From a virus (Duplodnaviria > Heunggongvirae > Uroviricota > Caudoviricetes): 35,809 nucleotides of DNA. Where the stretch lies: IMG/VR virus record IMGVR_UViG_2690316210_000007, positions 1-35,809 of that record. One strand, written 5' to 3'. Each line of letters starts with the position of its first letter. The first letter of the stretch is position 1. Under the pieces are notes generated by a model. It saw nothing but the letters and a program-made list of their open reading frames with translations, did no database searches and was not told the DNA's origin. Positions 785 through 9,153 of the stretch are shown piece by piece. Both the position numbers and the translations under genes were made by a program.

Positions 785-1834
785 ATGCTTAATACTGTAA
801 AAATATCCAGTTGTGAGTTAATCAACGCCGACTGCCTGGAATTTATCCGGTCGTTACCCGAAAATTCTGTTGACCTGATAGTCACGGACCCGCCGTACTT
901 TAAAGTGAAGCCTGAGGGCTGGGATAACCAGTGGAAGGGCGACGATGATTACCTGAAGTGGCTGGACCAGTGTCTGGCGCAGTTCTGGCGGGTGCTGAAA
1001 CCTGCCGGAAGTCTTTACCTGTTCTGTGGTCATCGCCTGGCATCTGATATCGAAATCATGATGCGTGAACGCTTCAGTGTGCTGAACCATATTATCTGGG
1101 CGAAGCCGTCCGGACGCTGGAACGGATGCAACAAGGAAAGCCTGCGGGCGTATTTCCCCGCCACAGAGCGCATTCTGTTCGCGGAACATTATCAGGGGCC
1201 GTATCGTCCGAAAGATGCCGGGTATGCGGCGAAGGGCAGTGCACTGAAACAGCATGTGATGGCCCCGCTGATTTCTTACTTTCGTGATGCGCGCGCGGCC
1301 CTGGGGATAACGGCAAAACAGATTGCAGATGCCACAGGAAAGAAAAACATGGTGTCGCACTGGTTCAGTGCCAGTCAGTGGCAGCTACCGAATGAAAGCG
1401 ATTATCTGAAATTACAGGCGCTGTTTGCCCGGGTGGCAGAAGAGAAGCATCGGCGTGGTGAACTGGAAAAGCTCCACCACCAGCTGGTGGATACGTATAC
1501 CTCACTGAACCGGCAGTATGCGGAGCTGCTGAGTGAATATAAACATCTGCGGCGGTATTTTGGCGTGACGGTGCAGGTGCCGTATACCGATGTGTGGACG
1601 CATAAACCGGTGCAGTTCTATCCCGGGAAACATCCGTGCGAAAAACCGGCAGAAATGCTGCAGCAGATAATCAGCGCAAGTAGCCGTCCTGGTGATCTGG
1701 TTGCGGATTTTTTCATGGGGTCGGGTTCAACGGTAAAAGCGGCGATGGCACTGGGGCGTCGTGCGATTGGTGTTGAGCTGGAGACCGGACGTTTTGAGCA
1801 GACAGTCAGGGAAGTTCAGGATTTAATCGTTTGA
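785..1834 (+). CDS. DNA amino-methyltransferase (N6-adenine or N4-cytosine), encoded in the late operon
   Basis: 349-aa ORF with DPPY motif IV near the N-terminus (DLIVTDPPYF) and an FxGxG AdoMet motif I near the C-terminus (DLVADFFMGSGST), i.e. beta-class motif order. Confidence 0.85.
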   Translation: MLNTVKISSCELINADCLEFIRSLPENSVDLIVTDPPYFKVKPEGWDNQWKGDDDYLKWLDQCLAQFWRVLKPAGSLYLFCGHRLASDIEIMMRERFSVLNHIIWAKPSGRWNGCNKESLRAYFPATERILFAEHYQGPYRPKDAGYAAKGSALKQHVMAPLISYFRDARAALGITAKQIADATGKKNMVSHWFSASQWQLPNESDYLKLQALFARVAEEKHRRGELEKLHHQLVDTYTSLNRQYAELLSEYKHLRRYFGVTVQVPYTDVWTHKPVQFYPGKHPCEKPAEMLQQIISASSRPGDLVADFFMGSGSTVKAAMALGRRAIGVELETGRFEQTVREVQDLIV

Positions 1835-1883
1835 AACGGATGAGATTGCAGAATTAATTACGCACCATTATTATTCTGCTCCC

Positions 1884-1959
1884 GGCCCTTTAGCTCAGTG
1901 GTGAGAGCGAGCGACTCATAATCGCCAGGTCGCTGGTTCAAATCCAGCAAGGGCCACCA
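1884..1959 (+). tRNA. ileZ: tRNA with CAT anticodon (tRNA-Ile2 lysidine type or tRNA-Met), 76 nt with encoded CCA
   Basis: Cloverleaf read by hand: acceptor GGCCCTT/AAGGGCC, D-stem GCTC/GAGC, anticodon loop CTCATAA (CAT), T-arm GCTGG-TTCAAAT-CCAGC, discriminator A plus CCA. Stx-type lambdoid phages carry ileZ-argN-argO here; the ileZ symbol is by analogy only. Confidence 0.85.
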
Positions 1960-2059
1960 TCACAAACCGCCATTAGCTTATCAGGAAGAGCAGACGACAC
2001 GATAACAGGGTTGTTGGTGCGGGGGCGGGTCCCCGATGGCGGTCCATTATCGGTATTCA

Positions 2060-2136
2060 GCGTTGTTAGCTCAGCCGGACAGAGCAATTGCCTTCTAAGC
2101 AATCGGTCACTGGTTCGAATCCAGTACAACGCGCCA
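2060..2136 (+). tRNA. tRNA-Arg (anticodon TCT), 77 nt with encoded CCA
   Basis: Acceptor GCGTTGT/ACAACGC, D-stem GCTC/GAGC, anticodon stem ATTGC/GCAAT with loop CTTCTAA (TCT), T-arm ACTGG-TTCGAAT-CCAGT, discriminator G plus CCA. Confidence 0.85.
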
Positions 2137-2150
2137 CACTTATTTTCCCT

Positions 2151-2177
2151 GGCTCGCTTTTGCGGGCTTTTTTTTAA
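2151..2177 (+). terminator. Intrinsic terminator downstream of the tRNA genes
   Basis: Hairpin gctcgc-tttt-gcgggc followed by a T8 run. Confidence 0.5.
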
Positions 2178-2181
2178 ATGT

Positions 2182-2398
2182 CTCACAATTCAGGCGGTTG
2201 ACTGTTGTCTGGTTTGCGGGGAGTTTGTTAAAAGAAACTGGCATGGTGAATCCCCCTGTGCGGAGGGGCAATCAGCGAGTAGGTATATGGGATAATCGCG
2301 GATTCAGGTGCTGGTACTGAATTCACCGGGAGGCACCCGGCACCATGCAATGGCACATAGCGCCACTCTCCAGCCCCTCTCCGGAGGGGCTTTTCTGT
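2182..2398 (+). repeat. Copy 1 of a ~220-bp hairpin-rich unit; candidate structured ncRNA/sRNA locus
   Basis: Begins CTCACAATTCAGG..TTGAC; contains gcatggtgaatccccctgtgcggaggggc, caccgggaggcacccggcaccatgc and a terminal hairpin cccctctccggagggg followed by CTTTTCT. The same architecture recurs at 2650-2886. Confidence 0.4.
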
Positions 2399-2585
2399 GC
2401 CGGATACATCACAGTTTCTGGAACCTTAGGTACTACAGTATCAGTCAGGGTGCTATATTTTCAGATGTGATGAAAGCCTGTCAGCAGGCAGGGCGTATCG
2501 GAAATGACCCAGTAGAGAAAACGTTGACTCAGATACCGGTGCTGAGTTACCGGGAAACCGGCATCACATGACCGCTATCCTTCCA

Positions 2586-2612
2586 GGCCCATCCGCTCCG
2601 GTGGGCCTTTTT
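2586..2612 (+). terminator. Intrinsic terminator-like hairpin between the two repeat units
   Basis: ggccca-tccgctccgg-tgggcc followed by TTTTT. Confidence 0.45.
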
Positions 2613-2649
2613 ACTGCAGAAAACAGGTTCCCCGTTAAATGCTATGTTG

Positions 2650-2886
2650 CTCACAATTCAGTAAGTTGACAGTTGCCTGTCAGACTGGGCATTTGTTAAA
2701 AAAATTTCGCATGGTGAATCCCCCTGAGCGGAGGGGCGACTGGTGACGGTATAATCTCTGATTATCAAAACGAGAATGACGCGGGTTTAGTGGCACCGGG
2801 CTGAACTCACCGGGAGGCACCCGGCACCATGTGCATGATGATACAGATACGCGGCTTTAGCCCCTCTCCGGAGGGGTTTTCTTGTG
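2650..2886 (+). repeat. Copy 2 of the hairpin-rich unit; candidate structured ncRNA/sRNA locus
   Basis: Begins CTCACAATTCAG..TTGACA; shares the 5' block (gcatggtgaatccccctgagcggaggggc) and 3' block (tcaccgggaggcacccggcaccatg ... cccctctccggagggg + TTTTCTT) with copy 1, with a different central segment that includes TATAAT. Confidence 0.4.
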
Positions 2887-3111
2887 GGCAAAAAAAGCCC
2901 GCGCTGGGAGACGCGGGCGGCAAGGAATAAACAATAAAACGTGAAGTAATATTTCAGCTGGCGAATAATACCCCATAGTAATCACTCTGCGCAACTGCGC
3001 GGTCTTTTTCGAATTGCGGGCTGTCGTCTCTCTTCTGCCATTGTCCTGTAACTTCCGGACTTCAGCCCGCTCCTTATTTTACTCACAATATTATCCCGGC
3101 CGGGAGGATTC

Positions 3112-4968
3112 ATGGCATTTAAACACTATGACGTGGTCAGGGCGGTATCGCCGTCAGACCTTGCGAAACGACTGACACAAAAACTGAAGGAGGGCTGGCA
3201 GCCGTTTGGTAGTCCGGTGGCCATAACCCCTTATACCCTGATGCAGGCGATTGCAGCAGAAGGTGATGTGGTGGTCAGTGGTGCAACTGAGCCGGATTGG
3301 TACTACGTCATCGTACTGGCCGGGCAGTCCAATGCCATGGCTTACGGTGAAGGGCTTCCGCTGCCGGATTCATACGATGCGCCCCATCCGCGCATTAAGC
3401 AACTGGCCCGTCGTAACACAGTGACTCCCGGTGGTGAAGTATGCGTATTTAACGACATCATTCCTGCTGACCATTGTCTGCATGATGTTCAGGATATGAG
3501 TACGATTAACCATCCCCGGGCTGACCTGAGCAAAGGGCAGTACGGCTGTGTCGGACAGGGCTTACATATTGCCAAAAAACTGCTTCCGTATATCCCTAAT
3601 AACGCGGGGATCCTGCTGGTACCATGCTGTCGTGGTGGTTCGGCATTCACCCAGGGCACGGAGGGGACATTCAGCGAGTCCACGGGGGCCAGTCAGGATT
3701 CGGCTCGCTGGGGAGTGGGTAAGCCGTTATATCAGGATCTGCTTTTCCGCACGAAGGCAGCATTGCAGAAAAACCCGAAAAACGTTTTGCTGGCGATATG
3801 CTGGATGCAGGGGGAATTCGATATGACGAATGCCAGTTACGCCCAGCAGCCAGCAGCATTTCTTGCAATGGTACAGCAGTTCCGTGCTGACCTTGCCGGG
3901 CTGGCGGCGCAGTGTCACGGTGGAAGTCCGGCATCAGTCCCCTGGATTTGTGGCGACACGACATACGCGTGGAAACAAGAACACGGTACGCAATATGAAG
4001 TGGTATATGGTGCATATAAAGGTAAAGAATCCCAGCAGATTTATTTTGTTCCCTTTATGACCGATGGTAGCGGAGTTAATACACCGACAAACAACCCGTC
4101 AGAAGATCCTGATATTGCCGGGTCTGGTTATTACGGTTCGGCATCCCGAACGAACAAAAACTGGGTATCATCAAATCGCCCGACGCATTTCAGCTCATGG
4201 GCGCGTCGTGGCATTATTCCCGATCGTATGGCAACTGCTATTCTGAACGTAGCCGGTCGCACCTTAGCCTTCATTAGTGGTAAGGCACCGGAAATCAAAC
4301 CCTCGCCCGGCGGCGACACTCCATCGGGGCCGTCTGATGGTGACACATCCGTTCGTACAGTCTCCCTGCTGCCGACAGCCGGAGAGGCTGCTGCGCAGGG
4401 CTGGACCATCACCGGCGGCAGTGTTGCGCTGGAAGATGGTGTGTTTAAGGTTACCAAGCAGAGCAATAAAACCTGGTCCCTGATGCATCCGGTGGATGAC
4501 GCAGTCTCCCTGCTGACACGGGGTGGCAGACTGAGCTGTAAGTTTCGACTGTCAGGCGCACTGACCAACAACCAGTTCGGTCTGGGAATTTATCTGTATA
4601 CCGATGTAGCGTTACCTGACGTCGTGGCGATGACCGGGACTGGTAACCCGTTCCTGATGTCGTTCTTCACCCAGACCACAGACGGCAAACTGAATCTGAT
4701 GCATCACAGGAAAGCAGGAAACACAAAGTTGGGCGAGTTCGGGAATTACAGTAACGACTGGCAGACGCTGGAGCTGGTGTTCACCGCCGGCAGTGCCACG
4801 GTTACTCCGAAACTGAATGGAGTGGCTGGCCCGGCATTCCAGGTCATAAAAGACAGTCTGACACTGGGGCTGAATGCGCTGACGCTGACGGATATTACCA
4901 AAAATGCAGCGTATGGCGTTGAGATAGAAAGTCTGGTGCTGGAGATAAATGCACCAGCATCATCATAA
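3112..4968 (+). CDS. nanS-p: Prophage sialate O-acetylesterase (nanS-p-like; SGNH/SASA-type esterase with C-terminal extension)
   Basis: 618-aa ORF with RBS ggagga before ATG 3112. Contains the GQSN esterase motif (VIVLAGQSNAMAYGEG). It sits between the tRNA/stx-equivalent region and the lysis cassette, as nanS-p homologues do in Stx and Stx-like prophages. Confidence 0.7.
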   Translation: MAFKHYDVVRAVSPSDLAKRLTQKLKEGWQPFGSPVAITPYTLMQAIAAEGDVVVSGATEPDWYYVIVLAGQSNAMAYGEGLPLPDSYDAPHPRIKQLARRNTVTPGGEVCVFNDIIPADHCLHDVQDMSTINHPRADLSKGQYGCVGQGLHIAKKLLPYIPNNAGILLVPCCRGGSAFTQGTEGTFSESTGASQDSARWGVGKPLYQDLLFRTKAALQKNPKNVLLAICWMQGEFDMTNASYAQQPAAFLAMVQQFRADLAGLAAQCHGGSPASVPWICGDTTYAWKQEHGTQYEVVYGAYKGKESQQIYFVPFMTDGSGVNTPTNNPSEDPDIAGSGYYGSASRTNKNWVSSNRPTHFSSWARRGIIPDRMATAILNVAGRTLAFISGKAPEIKPSPGGDTPSGPSDGDTSVRTVSLLPTAGEAAAQGWTITGGSVALEDGVFKVTKQSNKTWSLMHPVDDAVSLLTRGGRLSCKFRLSGALTNNQFGLGIYLYTDVALPDVVAMTGTGNPFLMSFFTQTTDGKLNLMHHRKAGNTKLGEFGNYSNDWQTLELVFTAGSATVTPKLNGVAGPAFQVIKDSLTLGLNALTLTDITKNAAYGVEIESLVLEINAPASS

Positions 4969-5118
4969 AAAGTGAGCCAGTCAAATGGAAGGTATCGTTA
5001 AACTCACCGGTAGTGTCAGTGGGTCGTCTGAGATGCCTGCATGAGTTATCAGAGCCATCAGTACTTAACTGGTGGCTTTTTTTATTGTTGTCAGCTTCCG
5101 GATAACGGGAGACGGGGT

Positions 5119-5334
5119 ATGTACCAGATGGAAAAAATCACAACAGGTGTGTCATACACCACGTCAGCGGTGGGAACGGGCTACTGGTTCCTGCAGTTGC
5201 TGGACAGGGTTTCCCCGTCTCAGTGGGCGGCAATAGGCGTGCTGGGGAGTCTGCTGTTTGGGCTGCTGACATATCTGACTAACCTGTATTTCAAAATCAG
5301 AGAGGACCGTCGTAAGGCTGCACGGGGAGAGTAA
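5119..5334 (+). CDS. S: Class II holin / pinholin, phage-21 S family (71 aa) with dual-start motif
   Basis: [71 protein letters not shown] closely resembles recalled S21 (..[59 protein letters not shown]). Met1 and Met4 give the antiholin/holin dual start. RBS gggagacgggg. The ORF-track start at 5041 is an upstream extension. Confidence 0.85.
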
Positions 5335-5338
5335 TTCA

Positions 5339-5653
5339 ATGACTCAAAACTATGAACTGATTGTGAAAGGGATCCGCAATTTTGAGAATAAAGTTACGGT
5401 AACTTTAGCGTTACGGGACAAAAAACGCTTTGACGGTGAAATTTTTGACCTGGACATCTCGCTGGACCGTGTTGAAGGTGCCGCGCTGGAGTTTTATGAG
5501 GCAGCAGCCAGAAGGAGCATCAGACAGGTCTTCCTGGATGTTGCTGCCGGGTTATGTGAAGGGGACGAGCTGTTGCCAGAAACGCGCCCCTGTTCAGAGG
5601 CGCGGTATACCATAAAAATTAACAGTTCTGATAACTCGATTACGGGTTGTTAG
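5339..5653 (+). CDS. Hypothetical protein (104 aa) inserted between holin and endolysin
   Basis: Intact ORF with RBS (ggggagagtaattcaATG), tightly packed between S (ends 5334) and R (starts 5709). No lysis-protein motifs recognised; no TM segment or signal peptide seen. Confidence 0.5.
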   Translation: MTQNYELIVKGIRNFENKVTVTLALRDKKRFDGEIFDLDISLDRVEGAALEFYEAAARRSIRQVFLDVAAGLCEGDELLPETRPCSEARYTIKINSSDNSITGC

Positions 5654-5708
5654 CTTTTTGCAGTTGGCTTTCCAGTATCTTTCATTGGTAGCATCCTGAT
5701 AAATATCC

Positions 5709-6242
5709 ATGAGCGCAAAAATCAAATACGGCCTGTCAGCTGCTGTTCTGGCGCTGATTGCTGCAGGCGCGTCTGCTCCTCAAATACTTGACCAGTTTCT
5801 GGATGAAAAAGAGGGTAACCACACTACGGCATACCGCGATGGTTCCGGTATATGGACCATCTGTCGTGGTGCCACAATGGTGGATGGTAAGCCCGTCATA
5901 CCGGGAATGAAGCTGTCGAAGGAAAAATGCGACCAGGTTAACGCTATTGAACGTGATAAGGCGCTGGCATGGGTGGAGCGCAATATTAAAGTACCACTGA
6001 CCGAACCACAGAAAGCGGGTATAGCGTCATTATGTCCCTATAACATTGGCCCCGGTAAGTGTTTCCCGTCGACGTTTTATAAGCGGCTGAATGCCGGTGA
6101 TCGTAAGGGCGCATGCGAGGCGATTCGCTGGTGGATAAAAGATGGTGGGCGCGATTGCCGCATACGTTCAAATAACTGCTATGGACAGGTTATTCGTCGT
6201 GACCAGGAAAGCGCATTAGCCTGTTGGGGGATAGATCAGTGA
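5709..6242 (+). CDS. R: SAR endolysin (T4-lysozyme-type muramidase, phage-21 R-like)
   Basis: N-terminal signal-anchor-release segment ([17 protein letters not shown]) followed by a catalytic E...D...T arrangement ([22 protein letters not shown]). Paired with a pinholin upstream, the canonical pinholin/SAR-endolysin system. Confidence 0.85.
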
Positions 6243-6697
6243 GCAGAGTCGCAGCGATTATTTATACTCTGGTTATCTGCACCATCGTCTGCCTGTCATG
6301 GGCTGTTAATCATTACCGCGATAACGCCATTACCTACAAAGCCCAGCGCGACAAAAATGCCAGAGAACTGAAGCTGGCGAACGTGGCAATTACTGACATG
6401 CAGATGCGTCAGCGTGATGTAGCAGAACTCGACGCCAGATACACAAAGGAGCTTGCTGATGCTAACGCGACTATCGAAAGTCTTCGTGCTGATGTTTCTG
6501 CTGGGCGTAAGCGCCTGCAAGTCGCCGCCACCTGTGCAAAGTCAACGACCGGAGCCAGCGGCATGGGCGATGGAGAAAGCCCAGGACTTACAGCAGATGC
6601 TGAACTCAATTATTACCGTCTCCGAAGTGGAATCGACAAGTTAACCGCTCAGGTCAACTACCTGCAGGAGTACATCAGGACGCAGTGCTTAAAATAA
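6239..6697 (+). CDS. Rz: Rz i-spanin
   Basis: GTG start overlapping the R stop (caGTGAgc). [61 protein letters not shown]... is near-identical to recalled lambda Rz ([61 protein letters not shown]...). Confidence 0.85.
6453..6644 (+). CDS. Rz1: Rz1 o-spanin lipoprotein, embedded in the +1 frame of Rz
   Basis: 63-aa ORF inside Rz with lipobox LLGVSAC and a proline-rich mature region ([16 protein letters not shown]), as in lambda Rz1. Confidence 0.75.
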
Positions 6698-6737
6698 TTT
6701 TAATTTCACTGAAATTTAATACGTGACTTTCAGGAAA

Positions 6738-6764
6738 ATGCCTCGCAGATGCGGGGCATTTTTG
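6738..6764 (+). terminator. Intrinsic terminator downstream of Rz/Rz1
   Basis: 9-bp stem atgcctcgc/gcggggcat (one G-U pair), loop agat, followed by TTTTT. Confidence 0.45.
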
Positions 6765-7113
6765 TACAGGTATTTCACCGCGCACCGCAGCGCACTCAAC
6801 CACGTCGAACCAAACCCTTTGGAATGAGCCTTTGAGTAGTCAGTTAGTGCTGGTGAGCCTTGACGGGCTGATCTCCTATGCAGCAAAGGTTCATCTCAAA
6901 GTAAGACGAACGCTATGACAAACCAAGATTCTATAGACCTATCTGATCTTCGTGGAATGGTCATTTTTCCAGACAAAAGGTAATCACCATAGTCGTATGG
7001 CTATGAATCTTGTTGCTGCAGATAAGCATTTTGTGATTGAAGTGGTCAAATCTCTCAAATGCAGTAAAATGCAGTGCGCTATAATTCAATAACGGAGGGA
7101 GTAAGGAGAAGTC

Positions 7114-7734
7114 ATGAAAGATCAAGATGTTAGGTTCGCGGTGCATCATAAGCTTTTGAAAGAATCGCATTTAGATCCAGACTGCCTTGTGGTCGATGAA
7201 TTTTCCATATCCCTTGGCGCCAGTAGAGCAGACATTGCTGTAATAAATGGTGTTATACACGGGTACGAGCTCAAAAGTGAATATGACTCTTTGGAGCGTT
7301 TGCCTCTTCAAATCAAGCATTATTCTTCTGTAATGGACAAGGTTACTCTTGTCGTAGCTGAGAAACACCTTGAGGGAGCATTAAAGTTAATCCCAGGTTG
7401 GTGGGGCGTTAAAACGGTTTCTGTTGGGCCAAAAGGCGCCATTCTTATAAAGCACATGCGTGGAGAAAAGCTTAATCGAAACCATGACACATTGATGCTC
7501 GCTCAATTGCTTTGGAAAGATGAATGTATCGACGTACTTGAACGATGGGGCTATTCCAAAGGAATCAAAAGCAAGCCCCGATTTGAGTTATGGAATATTA
7601 TTGCGGAAAATATTCCAATAGCGAATCTCAGGCCTGAAGTCAGAACAGCCTTAAAGAAACGCGTAGGCTGGAAAGTTAAGGCTTGGCAGGCTGAGTCTGC
7701 GCCAACCAATAAAGCTGTCTCACGACTAACGTAA
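7114..7734 (+). CDS. Hypothetical protein (206 aa) of the AT-rich cargo island; candidate PD-(D/E)xK-type nuclease
   Basis: RBS aaggag 6 nt before ATG 7114; TATAAT at 7080-7085 upstream. Translation shows an ordered E...hhhhD...hhh(E)hK pattern (LLKESHL..CLVVDEF..ADIAVINGVIHGYELKSE). No similarity to lambda late proteins. Visibly lower GC than the flanking phage backbone. Confidence 0.55.
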   Translation: MKDQDVRFAVHHKLLKESHLDPDCLVVDEFSISLGASRADIAVINGVIHGYELKSEYDSLERLPLQIKHYSSVMDKVTLVVAEKHLEGALKLIPGWWGVKTVSVGPKGAILIKHMRGEKLNRNHDTLMLAQLLWKDECIDVLERWGYSKGIKSKPRFELWNIIAENIPIANLRPEVRTALKKRVGWKVKAWQAESAPTNKAVSRLT

Positions 7735-8743
7735 TATGGTGCGTATGTGCAACTTTACGCCATTCTTTAGAGCCGCCAGATTTGTTAGCGCCTAATGATC
7801 TTTGGTAAATGTAATCATCCCCCCAACTAAATTTGGAGCCAAAGACTTGATACTCTGGCGAACTAACAAGGGTAGTACATAAGTTTTTAGTTTGGCCCCA
7901 TCCATTTCCTTTAACTGCGGTACCTTTTACAAAGATCCATGAGGTATCGTTCGAATATCTCACTGAGACATACTGAGACATGAAGCGTGGGTCTACGCTC
8001 GTAATGGTAGAGCTAGCGGTGGGATAATCACTAAAACTTGGCGTTCTTCCATTGCTAAAATTCTGTACTACGTACATCCAAAGATCGTATTCATGGCGCG
8101 GAATATGATGAACTTGATGTTGCGGTATCCCTGCCTGTGATGCCGGGTATGCGGTTGAAGATAAAATCAAGTTTCTCCACGGAGCTTGGCCTGATAATGT
8201 GTTGACCATGCTTAATGCTTGTTGTTTTAAACTATCAGTTGCGTTTTGAATATCTCCAAAATCAATGATTACATCAATTAAACTAGGATGAATATTTAAG
8301 TGGTTAACCAGACTTGTGAATTGGTGCCATGTCTGGGGGGTGATAGATATAGCGAGCCCATTGATTAAGTTGCGTTGAACAGCATGTATATAGTTTGTTG
8401 AATATGCGGGAGAAACAACAGGGATAATTTCCTTACCATTTACTCTAGCATCTTGGATACACATATCTAGAGGATGATGGCGGCTCGAACCATGTTTATC
8501 TAAATATTTAACATCCAGCAAAACAGGACGATTGGCTTTCCAGGATGCCGCAAGGTTAATACCGAAGTCAGATAAGTAAGAACTCAAATTCTTCTTGTAG
8601 CATTCGTTTTCATAATCCCAGTCTATGTCTGGAATGGTAATGATCGGAGTAAAACCAGAGAGCGTAGTTTGATCTAAAAGCATCAGAGATTCATATTCAG
8701 CAGGCTTCCATTTCAGCTGTGGATAATATTGATGTTGACTCAT
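7676..8743 (-). CDS. Hypothetical protein (355 aa) of the AT-rich cargo island, convergent with the 206-aa ORF
   Basis: Minus-strand ORF with RBS AAGGAG 5 nt before its ATG (8741-8743). Alternating short hydrophobic strands (VLLDVKYL, IIPVVSP, GLAISIT, IDVIIDFGDI, NLILSST) suggest an alpha/beta fold. No recognised catalytic motif and no match to lambda proteins. Its 3' end overlaps the 3' end of the + ORF by 59 bp. Confidence 0.55.
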   Translation of the reverse strand: MSQHQYYPQLKWKPAEYESLMLLDQTTLSGFTPIITIPDIDWDYENECYKKNLSSYLSDFGINLAASWKANRPVLLDVKYLDKHGSSRHHPLDMCIQDARVNGKEIIPVVSPAYSTNYIHAVQRNLINGLAISITPQTWHQFTSLVNHLNIHPSLIDVIIDFGDIQNATDSLKQQALSMVNTLSGQAPWRNLILSSTAYPASQAGIPQHQVHHIPRHEYDLWMYVVQNFSNGRTPSFSDYPTASSTITSVDPRFMSQYVSVRYSNDTSWIFVKGTAVKGNGWGQTKNLCTTLVSSPEYQVFGSKFSWGDDYIYQRSLGANKSGGSKEWRKVAHTHHITLVVRQLYWLAQTQPAKP

Positions 8744-8966
8744 TAAAACTCCTTAAAATCTTTACTTATCCTAAGTATAGTGTTATGGCGTAACGCCAAT
8801 TGTTTTTATACACTTGAAAACATTGGGAAAAGTTGAGCTATATCTAAATTTACAAAATTGGATGTTATAGAAATCGAGGTTTCAACTAGGCATGGAACTG
8901 CAAAATTTTTAATGCCTGCACGCGAAAGTCGTTGGCGGGTCCTTTCCGGTGATCCAGATCGTTACG

Positions 8967-8978
8967 GGGCGGCGACCT
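8967..8978 (+). other. cos: cos site: cosN 12-nt cohesive-end sequence (cosB region extends rightwards to roughly 9100)
   Basis: GGGCGGCGACCT followed by CGCGGTTTTTCACTATTTATGAAAATTTT, matching the recalled lambda left end GGGCGGCGACCTCGCGGGTTTTCGCTATTTATGAAAATTTTCC; Nu1 follows about 180 bp downstream. Confidence 0.85.
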
Positions 8979-9153
8979 CGCGGTTTTTCACTATTTATGA
9001 AAATTTTTCAGGGAAAATCGTGTCGGTACTTCTCGAATATAACTTTTTGTTTTTTTTAATATTGCATTCATAAATGTCCGACATGAAAGTGTCCGAAAAT
9101 GCCTTTTTCTGGCGTTTTCATGTCGGGCCTTGTATTTGATAATGGGTTGTTCT

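Follow-up and report, generated by a model that had tools for sequence, protein, structure and literature searches.

The lysis cassette and its surroundings

The window, by which we mean the whole stretch of 35,809 nucleotides of viral DNA that was analyzed (IMG/VR record IMGVR_UViG_2690316210_000007), contains a lysis cassette on its plus strand. The cassette begins with the gene of a 71-residue S21-type class II holin of the pinholin type (5119..5334). This protein matches the Pfam family 'P21 holin S' (PF04971, E=9e-33) and PHROG holin families, is named 'class II holin family protein' in RefSeq, and has two possible starts, Met1 and Met4. The endolysin R (5709..6242) is a phage lysozyme of 177 residues (PF00959, E=4e-24; PHROG 7, endolysin), the N-terminus of which is rich in alanine and glycine and SAR-like; this N-terminus matches that of R of phage 933W. 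The next gene codes for the Rz spanin (6224..6697; PF03245, E=7e-40). Embedded in Rz, in the +1 frame, the list of open reading frames has a further frame at 6453-6644, whose lipobox-like LGVSAC is what one would look for in Rz1.

Between the holin and the endolysin lies an intact open reading frame of 104 codons (5339..5653, plus strand), with its ATG at 5339 and its TAG at 5651-5653, which is a gene of the ydfR family. An initial annotation of this DNA had described it as a well-formed frame that splits a pinholin-SAR endolysin pair and has a ribosome-binding site of its own, and both statements were borne out. The Shine-Dalgarno sequence GGGGAGAG (5323..5330, plus strand), identified in the sequence and by comparing the junction with those of 933W and K-12, sits within the 3' end of the holin gene about 7 nt upstream of the ydfR ATG. 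The holin stop codon (5332-5334) precedes the same ATG by 4 nt. A spacer of 55 nt (5654..5708, plus strand) separates ydfR from the endolysin ATG at 5709. The 3' end of the spacer is the AU-rich GATAAATATCC, and there is no Shine-Dalgarno-like purine run before the endolysin ATG. The same GATAAATATCC is found upstream of R in phage BP-4795 and in locus L035 of the survey described below, and a near-copy is present in K-12.

No promoter or terminator belonging to ydfR itself was found. The gene would be part of the late operon, because of its orientation and because the order nanS-p, S, R, Rz, terminase is syntenic with lambdoid late regions. Its translation would start from the Shine-Dalgarno sequence in the holin 3' end, which in cassettes lacking ydfR is used by the endolysin gene. 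The operon is the one that controls toxin release and lysis.

The region 785-4968 has a layout like that of Stx phages, without stx. It includes a DNA methylase gene (785-1834), a tRNA gene with the anticodon CAT (1884-1959) and a tRNA Arg-TCT gene (2060-2136), and a NanS-p-like esterase of 618 residues (DUF1737, SASA and DUF6645) is encoded directly upstream of the lysis cassette. The near-identical prophage of E. coli 55989 has three tRNAs compared to two in the window. A terminator-like hairpin (5051-5079, plus strand), consisting of 12 pairs followed by TTTTTATTGTT, is located about 40 nt upstream of the holin start and inside the late operon. It may be a read-through site under Q antitermination or a chance match. 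Downstream of the cassette, between Rz and the terminase, in the slot that bor occupies in 933W, are two genes called 'sce7726 family' (7114-7734, plus strand) and 'beta family' (7676-8743, minus strand) by RefSeq in 55989. They are probably a prophage-borne anti-phage defense pair, because they match the PADLOC models 'cll' (E=4e-31) and PD-Lambda-2_C / 'beta' (E=6e-32), respectively.

Family, architecture and selection

The 104-codon frame is a bona fide YdfR/DUF1327 gene, and as such is already catalogued and annotated. It matches Pfam DUF1327 (PF07041) with 132.8 bits against a cut-off of 25 (E=5.1e-39), residues 1-96 aligning with profile positions 1-90 of 93, and it matches PHROG 2735, a family with no assigned function (E=3.5e-55). 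The K-12 YdfR protein is 65% identical to the window protein (BLASTP, E=4e-47), and in residues 1-72 the identity is 59/72 (82%). The score above the Pfam threshold, the homology to K-12 YdfR and the slot between an S21-type holin and a lysozyme agree in placing the gene in DUF1327. No NCBIfam model and no PADLOC defense model matches the window protein. The same DNA (100%) is found in many E. coli chromosomes, where RefSeq labels the product 'YdfR family protein'. Among these is E. coli 55989, whose copy (WP_000193273.1) is DNA-identical to the window gene and whose prophage is 99% identical to window positions 1547-9017. The frame had initially been called unexplained, which holds for its function alone; the gene is known as DUF1327/YdfR and is annotated by RefSeq in thousands of genomes. 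The window copy itself is an ordinary gene that had been annotated before, and the only new observations reported here are the pattern of convergent partner genes and the scar left by a deletion.

YdfR-family genes are among the commonest uncharacterized genes of E. coli prophages, including those of Stx1, Stx2c and some Stx2 phages. Related DNA occurs in 4249 of 5426 complete E. coli genomes (78%), at up to 8 places per genome, and tblastn found YdfR in 101 phage records, chiefly of Stx1a, Stx2c and mEp460-like phages. The family is nevertheless very narrow, because a profile search of 1.84 billion representative proteins returned 77 matches only, and a scan of one genome per prokaryotic species confined it to Escherichia and Shigella, plus two metagenome bins. 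The contigs from these bins, which are labeled Veillonella parvula and Bacillota (L017 and L019), bear an S-ydfR-R cassette of the E. coli type, with S 79-80% and R 93-96% identical to the window proteins, and are most likely mis-binned Escherichia prophage DNA.

The product is predicted to be a small, soluble, cytoplasmic protein that consists of a β-β-β-α core and a poorly ordered tail. The conserved core (residues 1-75; 5339..5563, plus strand) was delineated from an AlphaFold2 model, from invariant alignment columns and from dN/dS. In the model, β-strands 5-15, 18-27 and 33-43 are antiparallel and are followed by a long α-helix (50-73), with a pLDDT of about 73-89 per 10-residue block. The only invariant columns in the widest alignment are Y5, Y53, E54 and A57, the last three of which form a Y53-E54-x-x-A57 pattern. 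The variable tail (residues 76-104; 5564..5650, plus strand) is predicted with low confidence, the pLDDT being below 50 at residues 75-96 and 99-104. Tails of different alleles are wholly different from each other except for a weak [RQ]Y-x-[IF]-K-I motif, and the length of the protein varies with the tail (103, 104, 114/116, 161, 176, 206, 268 and 296-330 residues). The window allele is the minimal form, a core with 29 additional residues. K-12 YdfR has the same predicted core-plus-tail layout, whereas its C-terminal tail is unrelated to that of the window protein from about residue 70 onwards.

The absence of a transmembrane segment that had been proposed from the sequence was confirmed, the maximal 19-residue Kyte-Doolittle mean being 0.75. 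The C-terminal half had also been described as acidic. The protein is acidic (pI 4.85), but this property is not restricted to the C-terminal half, as each half has a net charge of -2. The homology search that had been suggested led to Pfam DUF1327 and PHROG 2735; the accompanying structure search gave no significant fold match, with Foldseek finding nothing at E<=0.001 and no convincing fold in BFVD or the PDB. When the PDB was searched by sequence, neither the protein nor the family profile nor a long family member gave a meaningful match. A double-stranded-RNA-binding domain (dsRBD), which would call for an α-β-β-β-α fold with significant structural similarity, was among the folds considered.

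The long forms of YdfR (P0130; L129, L139 and L145; gp05 of phage Stx2-86) are domain mosaics. The core is followed by a β-hairpin linker (PEKRPxILEAQxVxITYKGKLPGRITxSLK), a coiled coil that contains KDDIESRIEKLE, and a C-terminal domain of about 120 residues (WECNRPSFVV...). Each of these modules constitutes its own PHROG family (36381, 26186 and 15975), with no known function. YpeB regulates a lytic enzyme, and a similarity of the long form P0130 to PepSY/YpeB was considered. It was rejected as being at chance level (Pfam E=0.007, 16.9 bits versus a cut-off of 31.7; PDB entry 5boi, E=0.32).

Long forms are found in the same slot after the holin in Stx phages, as exemplified by gp05 of Stx2 phage 86 (268 residues) and forms of 296-330 residues; the 114-residue ORF47 of BP-4795 has this position too. 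The cores of these Stx-phage proteins are 52-57% identical to that of the window protein, which is minimal and lacks the linker, the coiled coil and the C-terminal domain of the long forms.

The initial annotation had named a lack of conservation in related phages and of a coding signature as grounds for dismissing the frame. Both conservation and a coding signature are present, so that it does not fall on these grounds. The core dN/dS is 0.26 between the window and K-12, and 0.27-0.34 between the window and the Stx-phage type, for which dS is above 1.2. Among 40 distinct, close alleles of 104 codons dN/dS is 0.38, and in the tail of close alleles it is 0.13, calculated from few substitutions. 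The neighboring genes have lower values (0.07 for the holin S and 0.10 for the endolysin R). The gene is thus constrained, yet faster-evolving than the lysis genes, as is usual for accessory genes.

It could be imagined that the frame is spurious or is the decaying, functionless remnant of a longer, multi-domain YdfR protein. The window form does have the shortest tail variant, a deletion scar adjoins the gene, and frameshifted and truncated variants are present in the databases. The frame is intact, however, in 80 of the first 100 loci fetched, the purifying selection extends across the deeper divergence, the ribosome-binding site is strong, and core-only homologs of 72-76 residues exist as stand-alone proteins. 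This explanation is highly improbable and was rejected on the basis of conservation and dN/dS.

The holin-endolysin junction and the convergent partner genes

The position of ydfR was surveyed in 252 loci, a set that is biased by the choice of queries. The initial annotation had proposed to look for the gene in related lysis cassettes, and it is there: in every Escherichia locus with a readable upstream gene (about 240 of the 252), ydfR starts 3-4 nt past the stop codon of an S21-type holin. In K-12 the gene (b1555, P76160) resides in the Qin prophage, where, as in the window, it begins 4 nt past an S21-type holin gene, essQ, and is followed by the lysozyme gene rrrQ and then by rzpQ. In K-12 the end of ydfR and the start of the lysozyme gene overlap by 4 nt, in contrast to the 55-nt spacer of the window.

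Phage 933W has the same types of S and R without ydfR. The ATG of its R gene lies 4 nt past the holin stop, behind GGGGAGAG, so that ydfR occupies the translational slot of the endolysin. In cassettes that carry ydfR, R either has the AU-rich GATAAATATCC leader or overlaps the ydfR stop, as in K-12. Insertion of ydfR may change the ratio of holin to endolysin translation, because ydfR uses the GGGGAGAG that R uses in 933W and R is left without a Shine-Dalgarno sequence. The expectation that holin and endolysin genes of this type are normally adjacent is correct for 933W, which lacks ydfR, but prophages of E. coli, K-12 Qin among them, very often have a ydfR in between.

YdfR is carried by about 101 phage records, compared to 374 that match a query spanning the cassette. 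Its types are shuffled with respect to those of S: holins that are 100% identical are accompanied by YdfR cores that are 56% identical, and holins that are 82% identical by cores that are 99% identical. Neither the holin nor the endolysin alleles co-vary with those of YdfR. Remote homologs of 72-76 residues (30-36% identity, reciprocally confirmed at E=4e-7) have their genes in the tail region of lambda- and phi80-like phages, either between M and L or between I and J, and one is about 550 nt upstream of unrelated holin genes. One remote homolog used as a query against IMG/VR found nothing. As judged from these loci, YdfR is the product of an optional accessory gene, placed exactly at the holin-endolysin junction of S21-type cassettes in Escherichia lambdoid prophages. 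It does not appear to be an integral component of the lysis machinery, because 933W lacks it, the types are shuffled, and the remote homologs are located outside lysis cassettes.

The constancy of this position, together with the takeover of the ribosome-binding site, invites the suggestion that YdfR is a cytoplasmic lysis-timing factor. It would bind the basic, cytoplasmic C-terminal tail of the S21 pinholin or the SAR endolysin before its release, so that triggering is delayed or made sharper, in the manner of RIII, the cytoplasmic antiholin cofactor of T4. Instead or in addition, the gene would act in cis on the holin:endolysin ratio by taking over the Shine-Dalgarno sequence of the endolysin. 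YdfR is acidic and the holin C-terminus is basic. Furthermore, the Keio ydfR mutant is an unvalidated match in a screen for envelope leakiness and lysis (Paradis-Bleau 2014, supplementary tables), and ydfR, with an MIC raised 3-fold, is on a list of candidate genes for survival of streptomycin (PMC12924614). The Keio result, however, may reflect polarity of the resistance cassette, which would affect the lysozyme gene rrrQ downstream of it. Phage 933W has a holin and an endolysin of the same types and lacks ydfR, the YdfR alleles vary independently of those of the putative targets, and remote homologs are in tail-gene modules. YdfR has no transmembrane segment, and Pfam, PHROGs and NCBIfam give no homology to an antiholin or a lysis family. 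The role of a lysis regulator or anti-holin, one of those offered by the initial annotation, is left with position and one unvalidated screen match in its favor and is unlikely. If it were true and YdfR did tune pinholin and SAR endolysin, it would represent a cytoplasmic lysis regulator of a new kind, which would matter for the release of Shiga toxin.

Like ydfR, the genes of known antiholins and lysis regulators (S21-71, T4 RI and RIII, P1 LydB, and releasin gp25 of Mu) are adjacent to holin genes. T4 RIII demonstrates that a small cytoplasmic protein is able to modulate a holin (PMC8385771), and RIII has also been linked to the control of RNA decay (PMC9409239). An antiholin would be recognized by a membrane segment, holin-derived sequence or homology to a known regulator, none of which is found in YdfR. 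Unlike S21-71, RI, RIII, LydB and gp25, with which it shares no homology, YdfR has no membrane segment and is dispensable in related cassettes.

A further parallel is offered by the morons of lambdoid phages, such as bor after Rz and lom in the tail region, which, like ydfR, are optional genes at precise junctions between essential late genes. Unlike morons, ydfR is co-oriented with the late operon, is tightly coupled to it, and lacks a promoter and terminator of its own. The orientation typical of morons, on the opposite strand, is displayed by genes that accompany ydfR in its relatives.

All six loci of remote homologs have a convergent gene of 70-101 codons that lies 12-30 nt downstream of the YdfR-core gene, whatever its position in the genome. 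In the survey of 252 loci, gaps of at least 233 nt between ydfR and R contain a minus-strand frame of at least 60 codons in all cases but one, and in Escherichia these frames abut or overlap the 3' end of ydfR. The pattern is seen in loci L003-L008, L009, L010, L012, L014, L015, L035 and others. At least eight unrelated types of partner gene were distinguished, which include gp06 of Stx2-86 and a 'DUF1823-containing' protein, each of them downstream of long Stx-phage forms of YdfR. Two of the better-sampled types are real genes, because dN/dS in their minus frame is 0.24-0.26.

The window has no intact small convergent gene downstream of ydfR, only a remnant of one. The last 13 codons and the stop of a 79-residue partner, LPMKDTGKPTAKS* (5650..5691, minus strand), were recognized by alignment with L035 and by translation of the minus frame, and the stop codon of the remnant overlaps that of ydfR. 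Compared to L035, 315 bp are absent from the window, and the flanks are shared; the remnant now makes up part of the spacer that distinguishes the window from K-12, this spacer being a partner-containing gap after a deletion. The 79-residue partner is intact in 7 of about 80 loci with the same 104-residue YdfR, and its relatives are all unnamed and restricted to E. coli.

This arrangement suggests that the YdfR gene of the window could be the orphaned half of a mobile two-gene module, in which a YdfR core on the late strand works with a convergent gene on the opposite strand that is perhaps expressed in the lysogen. YdfR might, for example, be the late-phase antidote or regulator of a toxin, exclusion or defense protein made in the lysogen, with the window copy being a solo survivor. 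The occurrence of a convergent gene in six of six remote loci, its near-constant presence in the longer gaps, the number of its types, the selection on two of them and the remnant in the window are consistent with such a module. On the other hand, the partner types have no detectable homology to each other and no Pfam family. Five of six tested with PADLOC had no match, and the sixth had a marginal match to LmuB (E=0.001). No promoter-like site was found for the partner, and the adjacency could reflect an insertion hotspot shared by accessory genes. Furthermore, solo intact copies predominate in the survey (83 of the K-12 type and 67 of the window type). Since most copies are solo, intact and under purifying selection, YdfR must work without the partner. 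We consider the two-gene module improbable as an account of the window gene.

A broader version would have the YdfR core and its convergent, 3'-overlapping partner of many unrelated types form a small mobile module that inserts at exact late-gene junctions (S and R in Escherichia; M and L, or I and J, in tail modules elsewhere). YdfR would be a lytic-phase 'off switch' for lysogen functions of the prophage and, once the late operon fires, would inactivate or redirect the partner or a host factor that the partner depends on, such as RNase E. Solo copies would be survivors that have kept the host-directed activity. This proposal is speculative, and we regard it as quite unlikely.

RNase E and RNA

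The direct functional data on ydfR come from the study of Göpel et al. 2026 (PMC13232886); other information is limited to unvalidated entries in two genome-wide screens. The first 72 codons of K-12 ydfR were obtained in a two-hybrid screen with RNase G as the bait, and this fragment gave stronger signals with RNase E constructs than with RNase G (PMC13232886). Full-length K-12 YdfR scored only with Rne1-597, and not with Rne1-498 or Rne1-415. Strep-tagged K-12 YdfR co-purified chromosomally encoded Rne1-598-FLAG from lysate as well as nucleic acid that was resistant to DNase. Overexpression of the protein changed few transcripts and did not slow growth (PMC13232886). Association with RNase E, RNase G and RNA has been reported for the K-12 protein only. 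The core of the window protein matches the 72-residue K-12 fragment that was sufficient for the RNase E and RNase G two-hybrid signal.

These findings are the basis of the explanation that we favor, tentatively and with less than even confidence. YdfR would be a late-expressed, cytoplasmic accessory protein that binds the catalytic half of RNase E, RNA, or both, and adjusts RNA turnover, and it would not belong to the lysis machinery. The window protein would bind the N-terminal, catalytic half of RNase E and/or RNA as its K-12 Qin relative does, and RNA turnover would be adjusted late in the lytic cycle. Among the roles initially offered for the frame, late-expressed cargo fits the evidence best, with late expression deduced from orientation and synteny. 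Our confidence that YdfR has a real effect on RNA decay is lower than that in the explanation as a whole.

Several observations limit how far this can be taken. The co-purification had no nuclease control for YdfR, so that RNA could bridge the interaction with RNase E. The small number of changed transcripts and the normal growth speak against RNase E being strongly inhibited or activated on a global scale. The acidity of YdfR is unusual for an RNA binder and counts against RNA binding. A role at RNase E does not explain the strict linkage of ydfR to the S21-type holin.

If the K-12 result carries over to the window protein, YdfR would join Dip (gp37) of phage phiKZ, Srd of T4 and gp0.7 of T7 as phage proteins that act on the main RNA-decay enzyme of the host. 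Srd, like K-12 YdfR, has been reported to act on the N-terminal half of RNase E. The binding site of Dip, however, is in the C-terminal scaffold of RNase E, and the T7 protein gp0.7 is a kinase. None of the three is related to YdfR in sequence, and YdfR has no structural similarity to Dip either. Dip, Srd and gp0.7 are the products of early genes of virulent phages, whereas ydfR is located in the late lysis cassette of temperate phages. A link between YdfR and RNase E or RNA, if true, would thus provide a late protein of temperate phages that acts on the host's central RNA-decay enzyme.
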